64,000 nt of DNA from Spirochaetales bacterium. Lineage in GTDB: Bacteria; Spirochaetota; Spirochaetia; UBA9216. The stretch is from the NCBI GenBank assembly GCA_016839055.1, contig JAEKNX010000006.1, positions 242,864 through 306,863 on the forward strand, read 5' to 3'. The notes under the pieces were generated by a model, which was given only the letters and a program-made list of their open reading frames with translations, was not told where the DNA came from and did no database searches. The translations under genes were made by a program, and so were the position numbers. How positions within the stretch are numbered: position 1 is the first letter of the stretch; each line of letters opens with the position of its first letter. Of this stretch, positions 2,302 through 10,171 are shown one piece after another.

Positions 2302-2445
2302 AATTAAAGACTAATGAAAATTGTTACAGCAATCAATACGAATATTTACTAATATACATATTTAATTTTGATTTTCATTCTTCGTGATATAATGGTCGAT
2401 AATAATAAAAATGCAATATTATACGTTCATTGTTATGGAGAGTTT

Positions 2446-4527
2446 ATGAAAAATCTTGTGGAAATTATTAGAATAGATGAGAAGAAATGTAATAACTGTC
2501 ACAAGTGTATATCCGTATGCCCGGTAAAATTCTGTATCGACGGAAGCGGGGATACTGTTGTCGTTAATCACAATCTTTGTATCGGCTGCGGAAGCTGTAT
2601 CGATGCATGCAGTAGTAATGCGAGAACATTTATTGATGATACTGAAGCTGCCTTTACAGCCCTTGATAATAGAGAAAAACTGATAGTAATATCGGCTCCC
2701 GCCCTTGTTAGTAATTTCAATACAAATTATAAAAATCTGATAGGATGGCTTAAGAGTCGCGGCGTGGCCGCTGTTTTTGACGTGAGCTTCGGTGCCGAGC
2801 TTACAGTGAGATCATACCTTGAGCATGTTAAGACTAATAAGCCGAAATGTGTTATTGCCCAGCCCTGTCCGGCCATCGTCTCTTATATCGAGATCTATAA
2901 ACCGGAACTGCTTAATATTCTTGCCCCCGCGGACAGTCCGATGCTTCATACCGCAAAAATGATCAGGGAGTTTTACCCCCAGTATAAGAACCATAAATTA
3001 ATTGTCCTCTCACCCTGTATTGCCAAGAGGCGTGAGTTCGCTGACACAGGTATATGTGACTATAATGTGACCCTGGCCGGACTAAGCAGAAGGATAGAAG
3101 AGGATGGAATTAATCTTGATAGATTTGAGCCTGCGGGTTTTGACAATCCTCCTGCAGAACGGGCAGCGCTTTTCTCTTCTCCCGGCGGATTAATGAAGAC
3201 CGTAATGCGTGAAAATCCCGCGGCCGGGGAGCTGATAAGAAAGATTGAAGGCCCATCGGAAATATACGAATATCTGGATACTCTTTCGGAATCCGTAAGA
3301 AAGGGAGTTAGTCCGCTGATTGTCGACTGTCTAAACTGTTCGAAGGGCTGCAACGGAGGAACCGGCACATTAAGCAGGGAAAGTTCCATTGATGAGCTGG
3401 AATTCTATATCTCAAAGCGGACCGAAGAGATGAAGTTGAAATACCGGAAACCGCTCTCGGTGAAAACTTCCAAGCGCAAATTAAACCGAGTGCTCGATAA
3501 GTACTGGAGGGCAGGTCTTTACGGAAGGACTTATCAGAACCGGGCTGAGAATAATACAATCAGGACACCCTCAAAAATGGAGATTGAAAAGATCTACACC
3601 GACATGCTCAAGGATACCGAAGCCGACTATCTGAATTGCGCGGCCTGTGGCTATAATTCCTGTGAGAGGATGGCAGTGGCTATTTTTAACGGCCTTAATA
3701 AAAAAGAAAACTGTCATCGCTATAAACATCGAATGGTCGAGATTGAGAAGAATGTTATTGATTCAATGAATCAGAAACTCGGAGACAGGATATCAGGATG
3801 CAAAGATCTTATCTTAACGGTTCAGGACTCACTAAAGATTGTTGATTCAAATATGCTGGAACAAAGCGGTTCACTCGAAGAATCCTCAGGTTCGGTAAAA
3901 CAGATGATTGATTCATTCAGTATTATCTCGGAAAGTTTTATGAAACAGAACTCTAATCTTAAGACCCTGATAGTGAAAGCCCGTGATGGAGAATATGAGC
4001 TCAAGGGCAGTTCCGGCGCTATTAAGAAGATTACTTCAGGAATAAGCAGAATAGGCGAGATGGTAGGAATGATCGATGATATATCCCAGCGGACAAACCT
4101 CCTTTCGATGAACGCGGCGATAGAGGCCGCTCATGCGGGAAGTTCAGGGAAGGGATTCGCGGTTGTTGCCCAGGAGATTAAGAAGCTTGCCGAGAATACA
4201 GCGGCGAAGGCGAAGGAAGTTGGTGAAACCCTCAATGGAATAATCTCCGAAGCCGGCACCACCAGCAGCAGTTCGGAACTTACAACAAGAGTTATTCTGG
4301 AAATAATCAGTGAAATTCATAAGCTGACAACGGATGTAAACAAGCTGGCTATCGATGTTGAGGGAATGGTTTTGGGAAGCAGCTCTATTATTTCATCTAT
4401 AGATGTCCTCAAATCGGATAACCGAAAAGTTCTTGACTCGGCTGCCGAGATTGGAGTACATATAAACCAGCTTGACAGTAATATGCAGGAGCTGATTACA
4501 ATTGCATCAGGCTATGAGGAGAATTAA
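2446..4527 (+). CDS. Sensory (group C-type) [FeFe]-hydrogenase-like domain fused to a methyl-accepting chemotaxis signalling domain
   Basis: N-terminal 2x[4Fe-4S] ([23 protein letters not shown]); H-cluster-like motifs [27 protein letters not shown]; FeS motif CAACGYNSC; MCP core [41 protein letters not shown] before ATG 2446. Confidence 0.88.
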
Positions 4528-4556: not shown

Positions 4557-5093
4557 ATGAGAAGCAACTCTGACGGCAGGCGGCCGGTTATAAAAGGCTT
4601 TTCTCTTCTTGTAATTGTTTTCTTTATTGCATCACTGAACTTTACTCTCGACAGGCTTTCTAAAAATTATGCGGTAGAGCATATCAAAGGGCAGGGGACT
4701 ATTCAGGTTGTAGGTAATATTTTCATTCTTCATTATGCCGAGAATGACGGAGCCTTCCTCGGTTTCGGGGGGGGGCTTCCAAAACCCCTTAAAACATTTC
4801 TATTGATTCTTCTCCCGGTTGTGCTTATAGTCGCGTCAACAATTTATACCGCCTTCAGCGGCAGTCTTCCGCCCGGTCAGATAGTCTGTCTATCTTCAAT
4901 AATCGGAGGCGGTGCCGGCAACCTCTTTGATCGTATTTTCAACGACGGCACGGTGATAGATTTTCTTAATTTCGGAATAGGAGGTCTGCGGACTGGAATT
5001 TTAAATGTGGCCGACCTGTCGGTGACATTCGGTGCTGTTCTTCTGATTATCCTGCAGCTAAGGCAGTCAAAGGCCCAGGCCGCAGGAGATTAA
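4557..5093 (+). CDS. lspA: Lipoprotein signal peptidase II
   Basis: Motifs ENDGAFLG, GGGAGNLFDR, VIDF, LNVAD; AGGAGG RBS before ATG 4557. Confidence 0.9.
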   Translation: MRSNSDGRRPVIKGFSLLVIVFFIASLNFTLDRLSKNYAVEHIKGQGTIQVVGNIFILHYAENDGAFLGFGGGLPKPLKTFLLILLPVVLIVASTIYTAFSGSLPPGQIVCLSSIIGGGAGNLFDRIFNDGTVIDFLNFGIGGLRTGILNVADLSVTFGAVLLIILQLRQSKAQAAGD

Positions 5094-5104
5094 ATCAGAT
5101 TAAA

Positions 5105-6388
5105 TTAGGTTAATTCTTTTGAAATGGTTATTGCCGCTATGGTGCCGTCGGCGACCGCGGTAGTAATCTGTCTGAAAGCCTTTGTTCTGACATCACCCGC
5201 GGCAAAGACTCCCGGGATGTTTGTTTGCATATTTTCACCGGTTTTAAGATATCCCCATTGATCAAGTTCCATTTCATCATTGAACATTTCCAGATTAGGG
5301 ATGAAGCCGACGAAGACGAATATTCCGTTTGTTCTGATCTCTGTTGTTTCACCGGTCTTGAGATTCTCTACAACAACACCCATGTCCATGTTTCCGTATT
5401 TTTTAAACTCACGGGGCTCATGTTCGAACATGAACTTGATCTTTTTGTCTGCGAAAATTTTCTTCTGGGCTTCCTTGTTTGCCTGCAGGGTGTCGAACTG
5501 GTGGACTATTGTAATCTTGCTTGCAAATTTGGACAGAAAGAGTGATTCCTCGATGGACGAGTTTCCTCCGCCTATGACTACAATTTCCTTGTCATCATAG
5601 TATTTTCCGTCACAGGTCGCGCAGTAGCTTATTCCCTGCCCCTGGTATTCTTTTTCTCCCGGGACATTGAGAGGTCTGGGTCTTGAGCCGGTGGCGATTA
5701 CAATCTTCTTTGCTTCAATAGTCTCGAAACCGTCAACAAGAATACTTTTGTTTTTTAGATCAATCTTCGATACTTCGACCGCGGATCTGAACTCAACGCC
5801 GTTGGCCTTTGCCTGTTCTCCCATGAAGTGACTAAGCATGAATCCCGGCTGAGGTTCAATAAAGCCCGGATAGTTGGAAACCTGATGGGTTGTCGCTACA
5901 TAGCCGCCGGGCAGGGCTGTATCAATTAGTATAGTATTAAGGTGAGCCTGTGCAAGGTATATTCCCGCGGTGAGCCCTGCCGGACCACCGCCGAGGACGG
6001 CGACGTCACAGTTTGTAACAACCGGTTTGATGCTGCCGTGAATTTCTGCCGCCCTGTCTTCGGGAATCAGGGCGTCGAGTCCCTTCATTATTTCCGAGCG
6101 CTTGATTCCTCCGCTGAGCTTAGGGCCCGAAAGTCTGCCGTCCTGGTAGAACAGAAGGGTTGGAGAACTCGAAACATCAAGTTCTGCCGCGAGGTCACGG
6201 TTTCCCTGTCTGAATATTTTTACGAATGTTATGTCATCACCGTAAAGGGTACTGAGACTCTCATATTTAGAGGCCAGAGCCTCGCATGGCGGACATTCGG
6301 TTGAGTAGAAATCTACAACCGCCCTCTTTTTGCCGAGGACTTCCTTCTTGAATTCTGATGCCTGTATTTCCTTGATTTTCCCTGCCAT
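5105..6388 (-). CDS. trxB: Thioredoxin (N-terminal) - thioredoxin reductase fusion
   Basis: Trx domain VVDFYSTECPPC; TrxR motifs GGGPAGL, ISYCATCDG, GGGNS, FAAGDV. AAGGAG RBS before MAGKIKE (6388). Confidence 0.88.
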   Translation of the reverse strand: MAGKIKEIQASEFKKEVLGKKRAVVDFYSTECPPCEALASKYESLSTLYGDDITFVKIFRQGNRDLAAELDVSSSPTLLFYQDGRLSGPKLSGGIKRSEIMKGLDALIPEDRAAEIHGSIKPVVTNCDVAVLGGGPAGLTAGIYLAQAHLNTILIDTALPGGYVATTHQVSNYPGFIEPQPGFMLSHFMGEQAKANGVEFRSAVEVSKIDLKNKSILVDGFETIEAKKIVIATGSRPRPLNVPGEKEYQGQGISYCATCDGKYYDDKEIVVIGGGNSSIEESLFLSKFASKITIVHQFDTLQANKEAQKKIFADKKIKFMFEHEPREFKKYGNMDMGVVVENLKTGETTEIRTNGIFVFVGFIPNLEMFNDEMELDQWGYLKTGENMQTNIPGVFAAGDVRTKAFRQITTAVADGTIAAITISKELT

Positions 6389-6413
6389 TCTGTTCTCCTT
6401 TTTGTTAATATGA

Positions 6414-7742
6414 TTATTCTTCCGAGGCGGAATCATTGCCGAAGTAGATCGGCAGACCGAGTGATATTAGATCCTTGACCGGCCTGCAGTCCGGAGACAA
6501 GATTGTTCCGTTTTTATTTTTGGCCGCAGATCCGCATCCGCCCCCGCATGTAAGCTGCAGCTCACAGTTTCGGCATTCAGGGATTGAGGTTACGTCCCGG
6601 TCCTGCCAGCAGCTGACGGCTTCGCTGTTCAGAGTTTTCTCAGGATAAAAAGTACCGAGCTCTTCTCCATCTTTTCCAACGGTCGCAGTGCATGAGAATA
6701 TCCTGCCGCTGTAGTCAAAGGCCCATTCGGACTTACAGCCCGGGCATGAGTCAAAGAGGGGCGAGGGCATTTCTCCCTTATCGAAGAGGAATCTGGAAAT
6801 TGAAAATGCCGGCCGGTGAAACTCCATTATATCAGGATTCTTCTGTATCAGATGGTAGAGATCCTGATACATCGATATCCTGTCGTAGAGGCGTCCTGAA
6901 TTAGCCTGACAGTAGTGAAGCTCATAGTTTCGGCCTAGCTGAGTCTTGAAAATGGGGTTTTTAGTCCAGCCTTTTTCGATGGCAAAGTTTGCGAGTTCAG
7001 GAAGATGAGGCATATTCTCCTTGTCCATCACGGCTCTGAGGTTGACCGGTATTCCCTCTGCAAGGGTGGCGTCTATGCCCGAGACTACCTCGGTAAAGGT
7101 TCCCTTTCCGCCATGAAGCATTCTTCTGCTGTCATGAATTTTCTCGGGTCCGTCGAGAGTTATCTGAACTTCTCTGACCGATGCAGTCTTTAGAAGAGGA
7201 ATGTACTCAACAAGCGAATAGGCATTCGTGACAAAGGCCAGTGAAAGGCCGCGCTTGTTCGCCTCGATGATTATCTTCTGAATTTTTCTGCGGTGCTGTT
7301 CTCCGGGAAGCAGGGGTTCTCCTCCGAAAACGGTGATGTATTTTCTCCGTCCGGCGAATTCTGTATCTATATATTTAAAAAAGCTATCTATTACTTCATC
7401 ATGATCTATTTTTGGCTCATGGCTGTATCCTTCTTGATAGCAGTAAGAGCAATTGAAGTTACAGCTGTAGGTCGGCACATAGAAAAGCTGGATCTCCTCC
7501 TTGTCCCGTTCGTCGACGAAGTCGAGGTATGCCGCTCTGTAGATTTTCTGTTCCTCGGCGGGATCTACGAGGTATCCTTTTTCGGTCAGTTCATTTTCAT
7601 CGGGATATCTGCCGTCTTTAATTGCATCGGCGGCTTCGGCTGATATTATATCAGCATTTCGGCTGAGCGGATTGACTATGAAAAAGTCATCAGAGTCTTC
7701 AATTTTGGATATAATATTATGTTTTGATAGCTTTAATTCCAT
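6414..7742 (-). CDS. Radical SAM/SPASM-domain peptide maturase
   Basis: CNFNCSYC, FGGEPLL, QITLDG; SPASM cysteines CPGC...C...CRNCELQLTCGGGC...C; an N-terminal extension of about 80 aa resembling a RiPP recognition element. Confidence 0.9.
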   Translation of the reverse strand: MELKLSKHNIISKIEDSDDFFIVNPLSRNADIISAEAADAIKDGRYPDENELTEKGYLVDPAEEQKIYRAAYLDFVDERDKEEIQLFYVPTYSCNFNCSYCYQEGYSHEPKIDHDEVIDSFFKYIDTEFAGRRKYITVFGGEPLLPGEQHRRKIQKIIIEANKRGLSLAFVTNAYSLVEYIPLLKTASVREVQITLDGPEKIHDSRRMLHGGKGTFTEVVSGIDATLAEGIPVNLRAVMDKENMPHLPELANFAIEKGWTKNPIFKTQLGRNYELHYCQANSGRLYDRISMYQDLYHLIQKNPDIMEFHRPAFSISRFLFDKGEMPSPLFDSCPGCKSEWAFDYSGRIFSCTATVGKDGEELGTFYPEKTLNSEAVSCWQDRDVTSIPECRNCELQLTCGGGCGSAAKNKNGTILSPDCRPVKDLISLGLPIYFGNDSASEE

Positions 7743-7782
7743 CTGTTCCTCTTGTTTTAAGCATTAGATGATCATTGAAAGA

Positions 7783-7807
7783 TCCGGGCCTGAACTCCAG
7801 GCCCGGA
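7783..7807 (-). terminator. Stem-loop just downstream of the precursor peptide gene (leaky terminator or mRNA stabiliser)
   Basis: Perfect 10-bp inverted repeat tccgggcctg-aactc-caggcccgga with only a weak U tract (tctttc) on the minus strand. Confidence 0.65.
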
Positions 7808-7815
7808 AACGGAAA

Positions 7816-7911
7816 TTAATCGTGACAACCTGCCACAACCTTGGAGAGTTTGGCGCAGCACTGTGCAACAGTTGTGCCTGACTCCGGTTTCTTCTTGATA
7901 AGTGACTTCAT
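7816..7911 (-). CDS. Putative RiPP precursor peptide, 31 aa (MKSLIKKKPESGTTVAQCCAKLSKVVAGCHD)
   Basis: Strong RBS AAGGAGAG before ATG 7911; fills the gap between arsM and the radical SAM gene; Lys-rich leader-like N-terminus and a Cys-containing C-terminus. Confidence 0.85.
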   Translation of the reverse strand: MKSLIKKKPESGTTVAQCCAKLSKVVAGCHD

Positions 7912-7927
7912 TCGTCTCTCCTTATAA

Positions 7928-8590
7928 TTAGCTGCAGCAGCAACCGCCCGGTTTATAGCCGAGGATTGTCCAGCTGCTAACTTCAATTTTACCCTTGGGA
8001 TAGGGGGTGCTTTCTTCCAGTACCTCAACGGTTTTGAAACCTGAATTATCAAGCTGTTCCAGGTAGGCTTCGCGAGTTACCGATCCGGCCCAGCATTCAG
8101 CGACTGCTTCAGGATCGTTTTTGTATTCTTCCGGCACGGGAATGCTTGAATAGATATCGCTGACGACGAAACGTCCGCCTTTTTTCAATATTCTGTAGAC
8201 CTCATTCCAGACATTCTGTTTGTTCTCGGCATGGTTGATTACGCAGTTTGAGATAACAAGATCGGCACATCCGGATTCAAGCGGCATATTCTCGAGATCT
8301 GCCTTAAGGAATTTCACATTCTCAATTTTCAGCCTTGCGGCCGTTTTTTCCGCTTTCTCTATCATCCCGTCTGAAAGATCGAGGCCGTAAATCATTCCCT
8401 CCGGCCCTACTTCCTCGGCCAGTCTCATTGCGTCGGTTCCGCGGCCGCTGCCGAGGTCGACACATACTTCACCCGAGGCGGCCTTGCTGTGGGCAGCTGC
8501 TCCTCCGCAGGACAGGCAGCAGCTTGTCTCTGCCAGATCGGTGTATCTGATATTAATCGCGCTTTTTATTTCCGGTTTCGGCATGTTCAT
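7928..8590 (-). CDS. arsM: Arsenite S-adenosylmethionine methyltransferase-like protein
   Basis: VDLGSGRGTD SAM motif; ArsM-type Cys motifs LSCGG, ISNCVIN and ECWAG; C-terminal CCC. Confidence 0.82.
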   Translation of the reverse strand: MNMPKPEIKSAINIRYTDLAETSCCLSCGGAAAHSKAASGEVCVDLGSGRGTDAMRLAEEVGPEGMIYGLDLSDGMIEKAEKTAARLKIENVKFLKADLENMPLESGCADLVISNCVINHAENKQNVWNEVYRILKKGGRFVVSDIYSSIPVPEEYKNDPEAVAECWAGSVTREAYLEQLDNSGFKTVEVLEESTPYPKGKIEVSSWTILGYKPGGCCCS

Positions 8591-8597
8591 CAAGCTC

Positions 8598-8993
8598 CTA
8601 TATTTTATTCAGAAGTATTTTAAGTCCGCTTATGACTGTCTCTTTCTCTTCTTCTGAAAGTTTTGCGATGAGTTCATTCTCACAGCGTAATTTCTCTTTG
8701 TTAAGACCTTCAACGCATTTACGGCCGTTCTCCGTCAGGTTTAGATTGATTATTCTTCTGTCGTTTTCATCACGATTTATTGAAATTAGTCCTTTTAAGG
8801 TCAGCCCGGATATTACCCTGCTGCTTCGGGACGGAGACAGGCCGGATATTTCAGATAGACCCCTGGATGATATAGCACTGTCCTCCGCTATAGCTGTGAG
8901 AAATGTAAGTTCTCTGCCGTGTAGATTCATCGTTTCTCCGATTACATCATCAAATCTGCAGCGCTGTTTCACCTCGAGTAATAGATCTATCAC
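8598..8993 (-). CDS. MarR-family transcriptional regulator with three Cys
   Basis: wHTH LSPSRSSRVISGLTLKGLI...DENDRR...LTENG; GTG start with GGAGAG RBS. Confidence 0.88.
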   Translation of the reverse strand: MIDLLLEVKQRCRFDDVIGETMNLHGRELTFLTAIAEDSAISSRGLSEISGLSPSRSSRVISGLTLKGLISINRDENDRRIINLNLTENGRKCVEGLNKEKLRCENELIAKLSEEEKETVISGLKILLNKI

Positions 8994-9009
8994 TTATCTC
9001 TCCATGTCG

Positions 9010-9081
9010 TTGCGCGGGGCAAAAGTTGCTATGCGCAATTAAATATTTAATTAATATATACCGAATAAACAATATAGTCAA
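9010..9081 (-). promoter_or_regulatory. Sigma-70 promoter and tandem palindromic operator of the marR-arsM-peptide-rSAM-trx operon
   Basis: Minus strand TTGACT (9081-9076)-N17-TATATT (9058-9053); two TTGC-N5-GCAA palindromes at 9010-9022 and 9026-9038, just downstream of the predicted start site. Confidence 0.7.
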
Positions 9082-9142
9082 TCTTTTTTTTACAATCTTC
9101 AGGTCAGTTGAATAGTCCCGTATTTACCATTAGTATGCAGAG

Positions 9143-10171
9143 ATGGAAAACCAAGTCTCTGATTTTAATAAACTGACTCCTGATCTGGTCATTGACGCAG
9201 TGGAGGCCGCTGTTGATATTGAACTAACAAATTATACCCAGCCTATGCCGAGCTATATAAATAGGGTGTATGAGCTTAAGACAGAGGATGATAATTTTTA
9301 TATTGCGAAATTCTACCGTCCCGGTAGATGGAGCCACGCGGCACTCCTCGAAGAACACCGTTTTGTCCTTGATTGTGATGACGATGATATTCCCGTCGCG
9401 GCTCCGCTGCGGCTAACAGGACTCTCCGGCGGCGATGACGCTCCGACACTAGGTTCTGTTGAGGGGATTCCGTTTGCTGTTTTTCCAAGGAAAGGCGGCC
9501 GTCTATGGGAAGCCGAAAATTTCGACTATTGGATGAGAATCGGACGGCTGCTCGGACGGCTGCATAATACAGGAGCCGCCAGGGCCTCTCGCCACAGGAT
9601 AAGGCTTTCGGCCGGTCAGAGTTTTCTCTCCGATATAGAGACGTTGATGTCTTCCGACTGGATACACCCGGACCTGAAAGAAGAAGTCAGGCTTAACATC
9701 AAACGGCTCGAGACCCTTGTCTGCTCTTTATTCGAAGAGTATGGTGGAAATGAAAGTGACTATATAAGGGTTCACGGAGATTTTCATTCAGGAAACATCC
9801 TTGACCGGCCGGGTGAAGGCCTCTATCTGATGGACTTTGACGATATGGCAGTCTCTCTTCCTGTGCAGGATCTCTGGCTGCTGCTGCCGGACTACGCTCC
9901 CGAATCAGGTGCTGAGGCGGCGGCAATCATTGAAGGCTATCGCGAGTTTCGGCAATTCAAAACCGAGACAATGATGCTGATGGAGCCCCTTCGGGCGATG
10001 CGAATGATATATTTTCTCTGTTGGTGCGGAAAACAGAGAAATGATTTCAGGTTTCAGCATAGTTTCCCCGACTGGGGTGGAAAGGCATTCTGGCAGAGAG
10101 AGAGTCAGGATCTTTCAAATCAGCATGATCAGATTACCCGGGCTATAGAGGAGCAGACTCTCATTCCATAG
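9143..10171 (+). CDS. srkA: Stress-response Ser/Thr protein kinase (SrkA/RdoA/YihE family)
   Basis: SYINRVY, AKFYRPGRWS, RVHGDFHSGNIL, DFDD, VQDLWLLL, LRAMRMI motifs. Confidence 0.88.
   Translation: MENQVSDFNKLTPDLVIDAVEAAVDIELTNYTQPMPSYINRVYELKTEDDNFYIAKFYRPGRWSHAALLEEHRFVLDCDDDDIPVAAPLRLTGLSGGDDAPTLGSVEGIPFAVFPRKGGRLWEAENFDYWMRIGRLLGRLHNTGAARASRHRIRLSAGQSFLSDIETLMSSDWIHPDLKEEVRLNIKRLETLVCSLFEEYGGNESDYIRVHGDFHSGNILDRPGEGLYLMDFDDMAVSLPVQDLWLLLPDYAPESGAEAAAIIEGYREFRQFKTETMMLMEPLRAMRMIYFLCWCGKQRNDFRFQHSFPDWGGKAFWQRESQDLSNQHDQITRAIEEQTLIP

Follow-up and report, generated by a model that had tools for sequence, protein, structure and literature searches.

A conserved three-cysteine peptide gene between an ArsM-like methyltransferase and a radical SAM/SPASM enzyme in Spirochaetales: probable precursor of an undescribed peptide modification system

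The DNA examined here, referred to as the window, is a 64,000-nucleotide stretch from Spirochaetales bacterium (GenBank assembly GCA_016839055.1, contig JAEKNX010000006.1, positions 242,864 to 306,863). On its minus strand, between the genes for an ArsM-like methyltransferase and a radical S-adenosylmethionine (SAM)/SPASM enzyme, lies a small open reading frame (ORF) that would encode a peptide of 31 amino acids with three cysteines. This arrangement raises the question of whether the ORF is a gene at all and, if it is, what such a peptide does beside these two enzymes. A 31-codon ORF is by itself within reach of chance, and it is conservation that makes the case. Judged by comparison with its relatives, the small ORF is a real, translated gene under purifying selection. 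We propose, with a probability that we put at roughly 0.7, that the peptide is the precursor, and hence the substrate, of an undescribed radical SAM/SPASM modification system, and that the product probably acts inside the cell as a thiol cofactor or carrier, in partnership with the methyltransferase and with a thioredoxin-thioredoxin reductase fusion.

Translation of positions 7816-7911 on the minus strand gives MKSLIKKKPESGTTVAQCCAKLSKVVAGCHD. Residues 1-8 form a leader motif (MKSL), residues 9-15 a lysine-rich spacer whose length varies among relatives, and residues 16-31 an invariant core, AQCCAK-x-S-x4-GCHD. The mechanical ORF list holds only one entry at this site, a 78-amino acid ORF that begins at a TTG, spans 7816-8052 and overlaps the methyltransferase gene (7928-8593) at the latter's 3' end. 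We rejected this longer ORF, as its upstream frame is unconserved and is closed by stop codons in relatives. In many related loci, for example L002, L009 and L044, the frame 5' of the MKSL start meets a stop within 0-7 codons, and therefore the ATG at 7911 is taken to be the conserved start. It is preceded by the Shine-Dalgarno-like motif AAGGAGAG, and GGAG-type motifs are also found 5' of the peptide ORF in loci from outside the Bacteroidota, such as L006, L012, L023, L040 and L045. A preliminary description of this DNA, made from the letters alone, had pointed to an unannotated 31-residue peptide with this ribosome-binding site and start codon, masked by a spurious 78-residue ORF, and both the sequence and the ORF list confirm it. 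The same description expected gene callers to miss the peptide, which is borne out in the source genome: the exact peptide is absent from a collection of 15 billion proteins in which the methyltransferase and the radical SAM enzyme are both present at 100% identity, indicating that gene calling missed the peptide gene there. When seven relatives of the peptide were looked up in this collection, six were found, either as 'hypothetical protein' or without a name; gene callers drop the peptide gene in some genomes, the source genome included.

Related loci were collected by a protein scan for the radical SAM enzyme, keeping one genome per species, and five proteins of the window were searched by tblastn against the resulting 80 loci. 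The peptide is present in all 49 loci in which the radical SAM enzyme is at least 36% identical to that of the window (L001-L048 and L055), and in none of the 31 loci in which identity is 31% or less. The tblastn comparison that had been suggested alongside the original proposal thus finds the small ORF at every close locus. The start codon is ATG in 46 of the 49 loci and GTG in two. At L032, a locus from a metagenome-assembled genome (MAG), the core is there without a start codon, and the frame of the methyltransferase is broken as well. The peptide alignment comprises 47 sequences, leaving aside L032 and the peptides of L008 and L028, which are identical to those of L005 and L021. Eight residues are invariant across this alignment (M1, A16, C18, C19, K21, G28, C29 and H30), and L4, Q17, A20, S23 and D31 are conserved in at least 90% of the sequences. 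At every locus the stop codon directly follows the final Asp or Asn, and the core can be written AQCCAK-x-S-x4-GCH(D/N)-stop. Pairwise diversity over the 16 codons of the core is 0.16, 0.175 and 0.598 at the first, second and third codon positions, respectively (49 unique DNA sequences of 50). The invariant Ala and Gly residues are written with all four of their codons, Ser with both of its codon families, and the median ratio of nonsynonymous to synonymous rates (dN/dS) for the core is 0.10, based on the 73 pairs, out of 400 sampled, with 0<dS<5. Because third codon positions are free while the amino acids are kept, the peptide appears to be translated and under purifying selection.

Co-occurrence with the radical SAM enzyme is equally strict at the level of whole genomes. 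Among 301 genomes of the phylum to which the window belongs, the peptide profile is found in 33 and the radical SAM enzyme (E<=1e-60) in 34. All 33 peptide-bearing genomes have the enzyme on the same contig, and the 34th enzyme-bearing genome is 71% complete and contains only a fragment of the enzyme. A profile search of 1.84 billion cluster representatives returned 142 peptide matches at E<=1e-3, nearly all of 30-62 amino acids with the core at the end. In those matches that were read, the same N-terminal motif and core recur, and the spacer between them differs greatly in length. Almost no variation in the core is seen among loci with the labels Spirochaetota, Bacteroidota, Fibrobacteria, Elusimicrobiota, Clostridia, Polyangiaceae and Neomarinimicrobiota. 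Genomes of isolates, rather than MAGs, that carry the cassette are those of Carboxylicivirga linearis, C. caseinilyticus and Roseimarinus sediminis DSM 28824, and a relative of the radical SAM enzyme at 61% identity is recorded from Marispirochaeta aestuarii. No NCBIfam family matches the peptide at E<=0.01, and no Pfam family matches any of four peptides queried at E<=10.

A few members of the family and of the locus set depart from this pattern. From the protein searches we set aside P0021, a 437-amino acid MATE-like protein in a peptide cluster that we take to be a clustering artefact, and P0133 and P0171, which appear to be frameshifted read-throughs. P0156, a profile match of 243 amino acids that was likewise set aside, holds four tandem degenerate core-like copies (ATCCVKTPT-x-SSGCRD) in repeats of about 60 residues, and may be a translated DNA repeat. 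At L099 (G057:C75), alone among the loci seen, the genes for the peptide and the radical SAM enzyme are not adjacent: the peptide gene is on the opposite strand at a distance of about 2.2 kb. The L099 peptide has an extra CC in the spacer, and the methyltransferase of this locus ends in the tail ACCCKG. One genome, G136, has two complete copies of the methyltransferase, peptide and radical SAM genes (contigs C91 and C92).

The presumed maturase, the radical SAM/SPASM enzyme encoded directly downstream, has the features expected of an enzyme that acts on a ribosomally synthesized peptide that is modified post-translationally (RiPP). Its CX3CX2C motif (C94, C98 and C101) and its seven-Cys SPASM motif (C333-x12-G346-x4-C351, C390-x2-C393-x5-C399-x3-C403 and C419) are invariant in 39 aligned sequences. 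This alignment does not include L008, L014, L022, L026, L028, L032, L041, L044, L048 and L055, which are duplicate, partial or broken. Also dropped was the MAG locus L003, in which there is an in-frame TAG at residue 259. In L018, also from a MAG, the second codon of the tblastn range is a TAA, the start being likely mis-set, and the start was shifted by two codons. In L048, again from a MAG, the enzyme is matched in pieces only. An AlphaFold2 model of the window's enzyme has a predicted local distance difference test (pLDDT) score of 90.6 and a predicted template modelling score of 0.88. At its N-terminus the model places strands at 10-13, 20-24 and 29-33 and helices at 35-42, 49-54 and 61-79, a topology that, in the model, is that of the winged helix of a RiPP recognition element (RRE). 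Pfam gives no PqqD or RRE match for the enzyme. The closest solved relatives are CteB (5wgg; sequence E 4.4e-11, fold E 5.8e-18, template modelling score 0.67), followed by anSME and SuiB. Relatives of the enzyme in public protein data are named only 'radical SAM protein' or 'uncharacterized protein'.

We predicted the complex of enzyme and peptide from the alignments of both, together with SAM and three 4Fe-4S clusters. The score was 0.81 in each of three runs, compared with 0.01 for the best of three controls. In a benchmark, 58 of 80 solved complexes came up to this mark, as did 2 of 110 mismatched pairs, counts that are approximate for the present case given the custom alignments and the ligands that rode along. 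Contact agreement in the runs was at least 40%. Confident contacts are limited to peptide residues 1-8 and involve enzyme residues 21-23, 28-33, 37, 48, 51, 55, 319, 323-325, 430 and 434, which include the conserved A30 and D31, adjoining the invariant N24 and L26. The leader of the peptide is thus predicted to dock on the RRE-like domain, and the model supports binding. The preliminary description had named the peptide as the precursor of the adjacent radical SAM enzyme and had listed binding to the N-terminal domain as a check. Such binding agrees with the complex model, and the precursor role is supported by strict co-occurrence, purifying selection and a prediction that passes its controls.

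What, then, does the methyltransferase contribute? Its listed ORF begins at a TTG, and the true start is probably the ATG at 8584, because a 218-amino acid protein in the 15-billion-protein collection is 100% identical to it over 99%. Its best solved relatives are the arsenite methyltransferases 8xt7 and CmArsM (4fr0 and 4kw7; E 1e-20 to 1e-22), and C29, C117 and C167 align with C72, C174 and C224 of CmArsM; the label 'arsM' given to this gene in the preliminary description was a reasonable one. All three cysteines are invariant in the 55 cassette methyltransferases aligned, a set without L032 and L041, which have broken C-termini, and without the partial sequences of L011, L014, L022, L038 and L048. 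A whole-genome scan with the arsenite methyltransferase model NF008823 found the cassette methyltransferase as the best and only strong match, at 187.2 bits. In the phylum sample, 28 of 30 close short-form copies (at least 45% identity) are on the contig of the peptide and within a few hundred bases of it, and none of the longer, canonical-size ArsM-like genes (33-41% identity) occupies a peptide locus. At L107 (G040:C132) only the final 76 residues of the thioredoxin-thioredoxin reductase fusion are left, directly after the methyltransferase, apparently because of a deletion that took with it the peptide, the radical SAM enzyme and most of the reductase. L108 (G115:C16) is a solo second methyltransferase with no peptide or radical SAM gene within 3.7 kb; its genome contains a full cassette as well. 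Five genomes of one genus in the same class (G015, G042, G065, G085 and G215) have canonical-size ArsM-like genes at 35-36% identity with one in-frame TGA each, which fits the selenoprotein ArsM variants named by NCBIfam; these, too, are not at peptide loci.

The cassette methyltransferases fall into two clades that differ in their cysteines. Clade B consists of six loci (L046, L047 (=L096), L094, L095, L097 and L098) in which the radical SAM enzyme is 36-41% identical to that of the window. A CC pair, C25/C26, lies three residues before C29 in 48-49 of 49 clade-A sequences and in none of the six of clade B, in a region that does not align to C44 of CmArsM; this pair plausibly supplies the first ArsM cysteine. 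Of the clade-A methyltransferases, 28 of 49 have a Cys-rich C-terminal tail, which none of the six in clade B has. Clade B has S-L-G-C in place of CCLSCGG, and all six of its peptides have a second CC motif in the spacer. Elsewhere, extra Cys pairs in the spacer are sporadic (L035, L099, P0153, P0158, P0160 and P0170). The clade-B covariation fits the idea that peptide thiols act with, or replace, thiols of the methyltransferase, for which it is weak evidence.

These genes form a minus-strand operon in the order MarR-family regulator, methyltransferase, peptide, radical SAM/SPASM enzyme and thioredoxin-thioredoxin reductase fusion. All ORFs of the 49 loci were clustered in order to tabulate the cassette, and the counts are given together with the coordinates in Table 1. 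Since only 4 of the 49 loci carry the MarR gene, it appears to be a lineage-specific regulator. No conserved protease, transporter or ABC exporter, or immunity gene is present among the clustered ORFs. In the loci that encode a DUF1847 protein (PF08901), its gene is directly 5' of the methyltransferase gene, as at L042:2579-3169; the source genome encodes such a protein outside the cassette, on another contig (G000:C10:204837-205259). Elsewhere in the window, on the plus strand at 2368-4527, is a gene for a 719-amino acid protein with ferredoxin-like 4Fe-4S motifs, a domain like the large subunit of [FeFe]-hydrogenase and a methyl-accepting chemotaxis signalling domain; from these domains the product looks like a hydrogenase-like sensory transducer.

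Table 1. Features of the peptide operon in the window and their occurrence among the 49 related loci
Feature	Coordinates	Strand	Related loci (of 49)	Remarks
Promoter-like site	9081..9053	(-)		5' of MarR-family regulator
MarR-family regulator	8598..8993	(-)	4	Operon head
DUF1847 protein			15	Just upstream of methyltransferase
ArsM-like SAM methyltransferase	7928..8593	(-)	48	221 aa from TTG; N-terminal CCLSCGG, C-terminal GCCCS tail
Shine-Dalgarno-like AAGGAGAG	7916..7923	(-)		4 bases 5' of ATG 7911
Candidate precursor peptide gene	7816..7911	(-)	49	31 codons; ATG at 7911 to TAA; stop 7816-7818
Stem-loop between peptide stop and radical SAM start	7783..7807	(-)		10-bp GC-rich stem, weak T tract; -21.7 kcal/mol, z -4.24, 0/200 shuffles fold as well
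Radical SAM/SPASM enzyme, presumed maturase	6414..7742	(-)	49	442 aa; predicted N-terminal RRE-like winged-helix domain; PF04055
Thioredoxin-thioredoxin reductase fusion	5105..6436	(-)	42	443 aa; thioredoxin CPPC, reductase CATC
Sigma-54 activator			10	
Histidine kinase			9	
YceI			6	

The stem-loop that follows the peptide gene is likely an attenuator or a transcript-stabilising element, and not a full terminator. A simple terminator scan did not call it, its T tract being weak, and listed three other sites compared with 5.0 expected; Rfam has no match at E<=0.1 within 5000-9200. A strong hairpin is found 3' of the peptide gene in 33 of the 42 intergenic regions of at least 25 nt, with eight further loci having shorter spacers (z-scores at related loci are from 60 mononucleotide shuffles of the first 90 nt). 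It is structure that is kept and not sequence. A hairpin after the precursor gene occurs in other RiPP operons, where it favours an excess of precursor transcript.

How the parts might work together can be outlined as follows. The MKSL motif would dock as a strand on the RRE-like domain at the N-terminus of the radical SAM enzyme, and the variable length of the spacer would give the active site access to the invariant core, AQCCAK-x-S-x4-GCH(D/N)-COOH. The chemistry applied to the core cysteines, or beside them, would most likely be that of the 5'-deoxyadenosyl radical, and the likeness to CteB suggests that it may install thioether crosslinks, one or more in number. The core hardly varies among loci labelled as at least seven higher taxa, and neither export genes nor a protease gene is conserved, and for these reasons the product is probably retained in the cell. 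Taken together with the thioredoxin-thioredoxin reductase partner, these same features point to an intracellular cofactor or carrier rather than an antibiotic; the preliminary description had foreseen none of the three. Such a product might present or exchange a metalloid, or redox equivalents, with the methyltransferase, with the thioredoxin-thioredoxin reductase fusion as its partner. What we infer here is how the core is modified, that the product acts within the cell, and that arsenic is the substrate.

The reason for looking to the methyltransferase lies in the biochemistry of canonical ArsM. According to one source (PMC6138428), ArsM needs four cysteines, receives As(III) by thiol transfer from arsenic triglutathione, As(GS)3, and is re-reduced by thioredoxin. 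Since canonical ArsM takes As(III) from a tri-thiolate and is recycled by thioredoxin, a cofactor or carrier role towards the methyltransferase suggests itself, and by analogy the peptide might fill the role that As(GS)3, glutathione and thioredoxin have there. In addition to its three cysteines, the peptide ends in Cys-His-Asp-COOH, which offers further metal-binding residues. A more specific version is tentative and, in our estimate, rather doubtful: a RiPP tri-thiol carrier would present a thiophilic metalloid, As(III) or another, to a compact ArsM-type enzyme and be recycled by its own thioredoxin-thioredoxin reductase, as a replacement for glutathione and As(GS)3 in anaerobes. At its boldest, this version would have the peptide end up covalently bearing a methylated arsenical. 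It is also possible that the methyltransferase tailors the peptide itself.

Several points weigh against a precursor whose modified product serves as a thiol carrier. In NCBIfam the radical SAM enzyme has 72 matches, of which the best 25 all fall below the curated cut-off (the top one, TIGR04463, at 133.9 bits against 525), so that homology gives no basis for assigning its chemistry. Confidence in the complex model is confined to the leader, with the core not placed in the active site, the pLDDT of the partner is 43-49, and the passing score may partly reflect likeness to the solved leader-RRE complexes of CteB and SuiB. If all three cysteines were made into thioethers, metalloid binding would be abolished. 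With regard to the methyltransferase, its 188.8 bits on NF008823 lie under the cut-off of 263, no ars gene is found among the conserved neighbours of the 49 loci, and Acr3 of the source genome is on another contig than the cassette. Because ars linkage is missing and the score is under the cut-off, arsenic as the substrate is a homology-based guess. Two of the 30 close methyltransferase copies in the phylum sample stand without the peptide, one being a deletion remnant and the other a solo second copy. Finally, the covariation in clade B is limited to a single clade and is essentially one evolutionary event, hence its low weight.

Other explanations of the locus have to be set against the proposed precursor and carrier. 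That there is no functional peptide is highly improbable. Short ORFs do arise by chance, and a stable hairpin lies directly 3' of this one, which might make it a regulatory leader ORF that controls the hairpin and hence expression of the radical SAM enzyme. However, neither a chance ORF nor such a leader accounts for conserved amino acids with free third codon positions, for the invariance of A16, K21, G28 and H30, none of which is a Cys, or for a family of 142 cluster representatives; the hairpin, moreover, lies past the stop and is unconserved in sequence, eight spacers are shorter than 25 nt, and 9 of the 42 longer ones lack a strong hairpin. The peptide might instead work unmodified, as a metal or metalloid chaperone whose three cysteines, perhaps with His and Asp, pass As(III) or another thiophilic ion to the methyltransferase, while the radical SAM enzyme has its substrate elsewhere, for example in the Cys tail of the methyltransferase. 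The three-Cys pattern is like that of ArsD, the tail is there in more than half of clade A, and a SPASM enzyme is reported (PMC13692751) to crosslink a full-size Cys-rich protein. We nevertheless consider an unmodified chaperone very unlikely. The tail is missing from 21 of 49 clade-A and from all six clade-B methyltransferases, whereas peptide and radical SAM enzyme are inseparable, and the MKSL leader is predicted on the RRE-like domain with a score that no control approaches (0.81 against 0.01 for the best).

If the peptide is modified, it could be a ranthipeptide or sactipeptide that is secreted as an antimicrobial or a signal, with the methyltransferase tailoring it on S, N or O and the thioredoxin system keeping its cysteines reduced before crosslinking. 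The closest relatives of the radical SAM enzyme are indeed maturases that form thioethers or act on Cys-rich peptides (TIGR04463, CefB, PapB and CteB), and methyltransferases are common as RiPP tailoring enzymes. Methylation of cysteines in a protein also has a reported precedent in AS3MT, which can act in vitro on cysteines of its own (PMC9013690). Yet the core is near-invariant across phyla, unlike those of diversifying antibiotics, the 49 loci have no conserved protease, ABC exporter or immunity gene, and a tailoring methyltransferase would have no need of the ArsM Cys triad that is kept in 55 of 55; a secreted product is therefore unlikely. The same triad is a point in favour of an organoarsenical RiPP, in which the thiols of the peptide would hold As(III), a radical on the peptide made by the SPASM enzyme would form a C-As bond, and the ArsM-like enzyme would methylate the arsenic. 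The CC-plus-C pattern of the peptide resembles the As(III) site of ArsD, families of ArsM from arsenosugar and arsinothricin biosynthesis are among the weak NCBIfam matches of the methyltransferase, and pairs of a radical SAM enzyme and an ArsM make known organoarsenicals, as in the arsinothricin cluster arsQML (PMC8552651). These matches are far under the arsinothricin and arsenosugar ArsM cut-offs, however (113 against 500, 103 against 240 and 70 against 400), there are no linked ars genes, and the radical SAM enzyme is a SPASM enzyme of the CteB/anSME kind with an RRE, with no ArsS or ArsL family among the best 25 of its 72 NCBIfam matches. To our knowledge, formation of a C-As bond on a peptide has no precedent either, and we judge an organoarsenical RiPP quite unlikely. 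As(III) coordination and crosslinks of the sactipeptide or ranthipeptide type, the two options named in the preliminary description, are indistinguishable in silico.

Among known systems, our reading of the sequences would place the one described here closest to the SCIFF/ranthipeptide enzymes, as an RRE-dependent, RiPP-like radical SAM/SPASM system outside every curated family that was matched. It has the general features of radical SAM/SPASM RiPP systems: an adjoining and co-occurring short ORF, an enzyme with CX3CX2C and the seven-Cys SPASM motif, and, as predicted from the model, recognition of the leader by an RRE. As with CteA-CteB (5wgg) and PapA-PapB, a small Cys-containing peptide is encoded beside a radical SAM/SPASM enzyme with an N-terminal RRE. 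The SCIFF peptide is highly conserved, as is the peptide here, and SCIFF is not known to have a linked exporter; likewise none is linked here. SCIFF peptides (six cysteines in forty-five residues) have a six-Cys motif at the C-terminus, whereas the present peptide has three cysteines in a core of 16 residues and matches neither the SCIFF peptide model nor any other. The radical SAM enzyme scores 64.3 bits against 425 on the model for the SCIFF maturase (TIGR03974), which, with the three cysteines of the peptide, puts the pair outside SCIFF, and on PapB it scores 102.3 bits against a cut-off of 340. The best-scoring curated families for the enzyme, TIGR04463 ('rSAM vs C-rich') at 133.9 bits and CefA/CefB (Cys-every-fifth) at 130.2 bits, have names that refer to Cys-rich or Cys-periodic peptides, but the scores are far below 525 and 600 and the cysteines of the present peptide are not periodic. 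A fixed partnership with an ArsM-like methyltransferase and a thioredoxin-thioredoxin reductase was not found for ranthipeptides in our literature search.

In its presumed biology, the system resembles those of mycofactocin (MftA/MftC) and PQQ (PqqA/PqqE), in which a peptide of about 30 amino acids with an invariant C-terminal core is modified by a radical SAM/SPASM enzyme with RRE-type recognition, and which are intracellular and conserved across phyla. The likeness extends to the pattern of conservation and to the lack of export genes, and PqqE (6c8v) is among the fold matches of the radical SAM enzyme. There is no sequence relation, however, MftC and PqqE are not in the enzyme's best 25 of 72 NCBIfam matches, and the chemistry of the core is different, with Cys, His and Asp here compared with Val-Tyr or Glu-Tyr in mycofactocin and PQQ. 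Radical SAM enzymes of the ArsL and ArsS type work on small molecules and are not known to have a precursor peptide. The pairing of a radical SAM gene with an ArsM-type gene is nevertheless shared with ArsL/ArsM (arsinothricin) and ArsS/ArsM (arsenosugars) (PMC8552651); unlike ArsL and ArsS, the enzyme here is of the peptide-maturase type with RRE and SPASM. The methyltransferase differs from canonical ArsM in being short (about 215 amino acids), in having the first Cys motif compressed to CCLSCGG and in lacking the context of an ars operon. ArsD binds As(III) through the vicinal Cys12 and Cys13 and through Cys18 (PMC12415280), and the peptide likewise has a vicinal Cys pair plus a third Cys. 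It has no homology to ArsD, however, with no Pfam match at E<=10, and does not belong to the ArsD type.

Our literature search found no description of the peptide or of the cassette, within a scope that excluded subscription papers and supplements, so that an earlier mention is possible, for example in a large radical SAM similarity-network survey. The one match to 'QCCAK' was an unrelated venom proteome paper. The combination of peptide, radical SAM enzyme, ArsM-type methyltransferase and thioredoxin-thioredoxin reductase is an unprecedented and tightly conserved set of partners. The peptide represents an unnamed and widespread family, with 142 cluster representatives and with partner enzymes in thousands of proteins, from anaerobic Spirochaetota, Bacteroidota and other phyla, and through its fixed partners the chemistry of radical SAM enzymes on peptides is linked with a methyltransferase of the arsenic type and with a thioredoxin system private to the cassette. 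The isolates that carry the cassette make the system directly testable. If the peptide does give rise to a cofactor or carrier, it would be a third example of a RiPP-derived cofactor besides PQQ and mycofactocin, and it could explain how metalloid is supplied to ArsM-like enzymes in anaerobes that are presumed to be without glutathione, an open point in anaerobic arsenic methylation.

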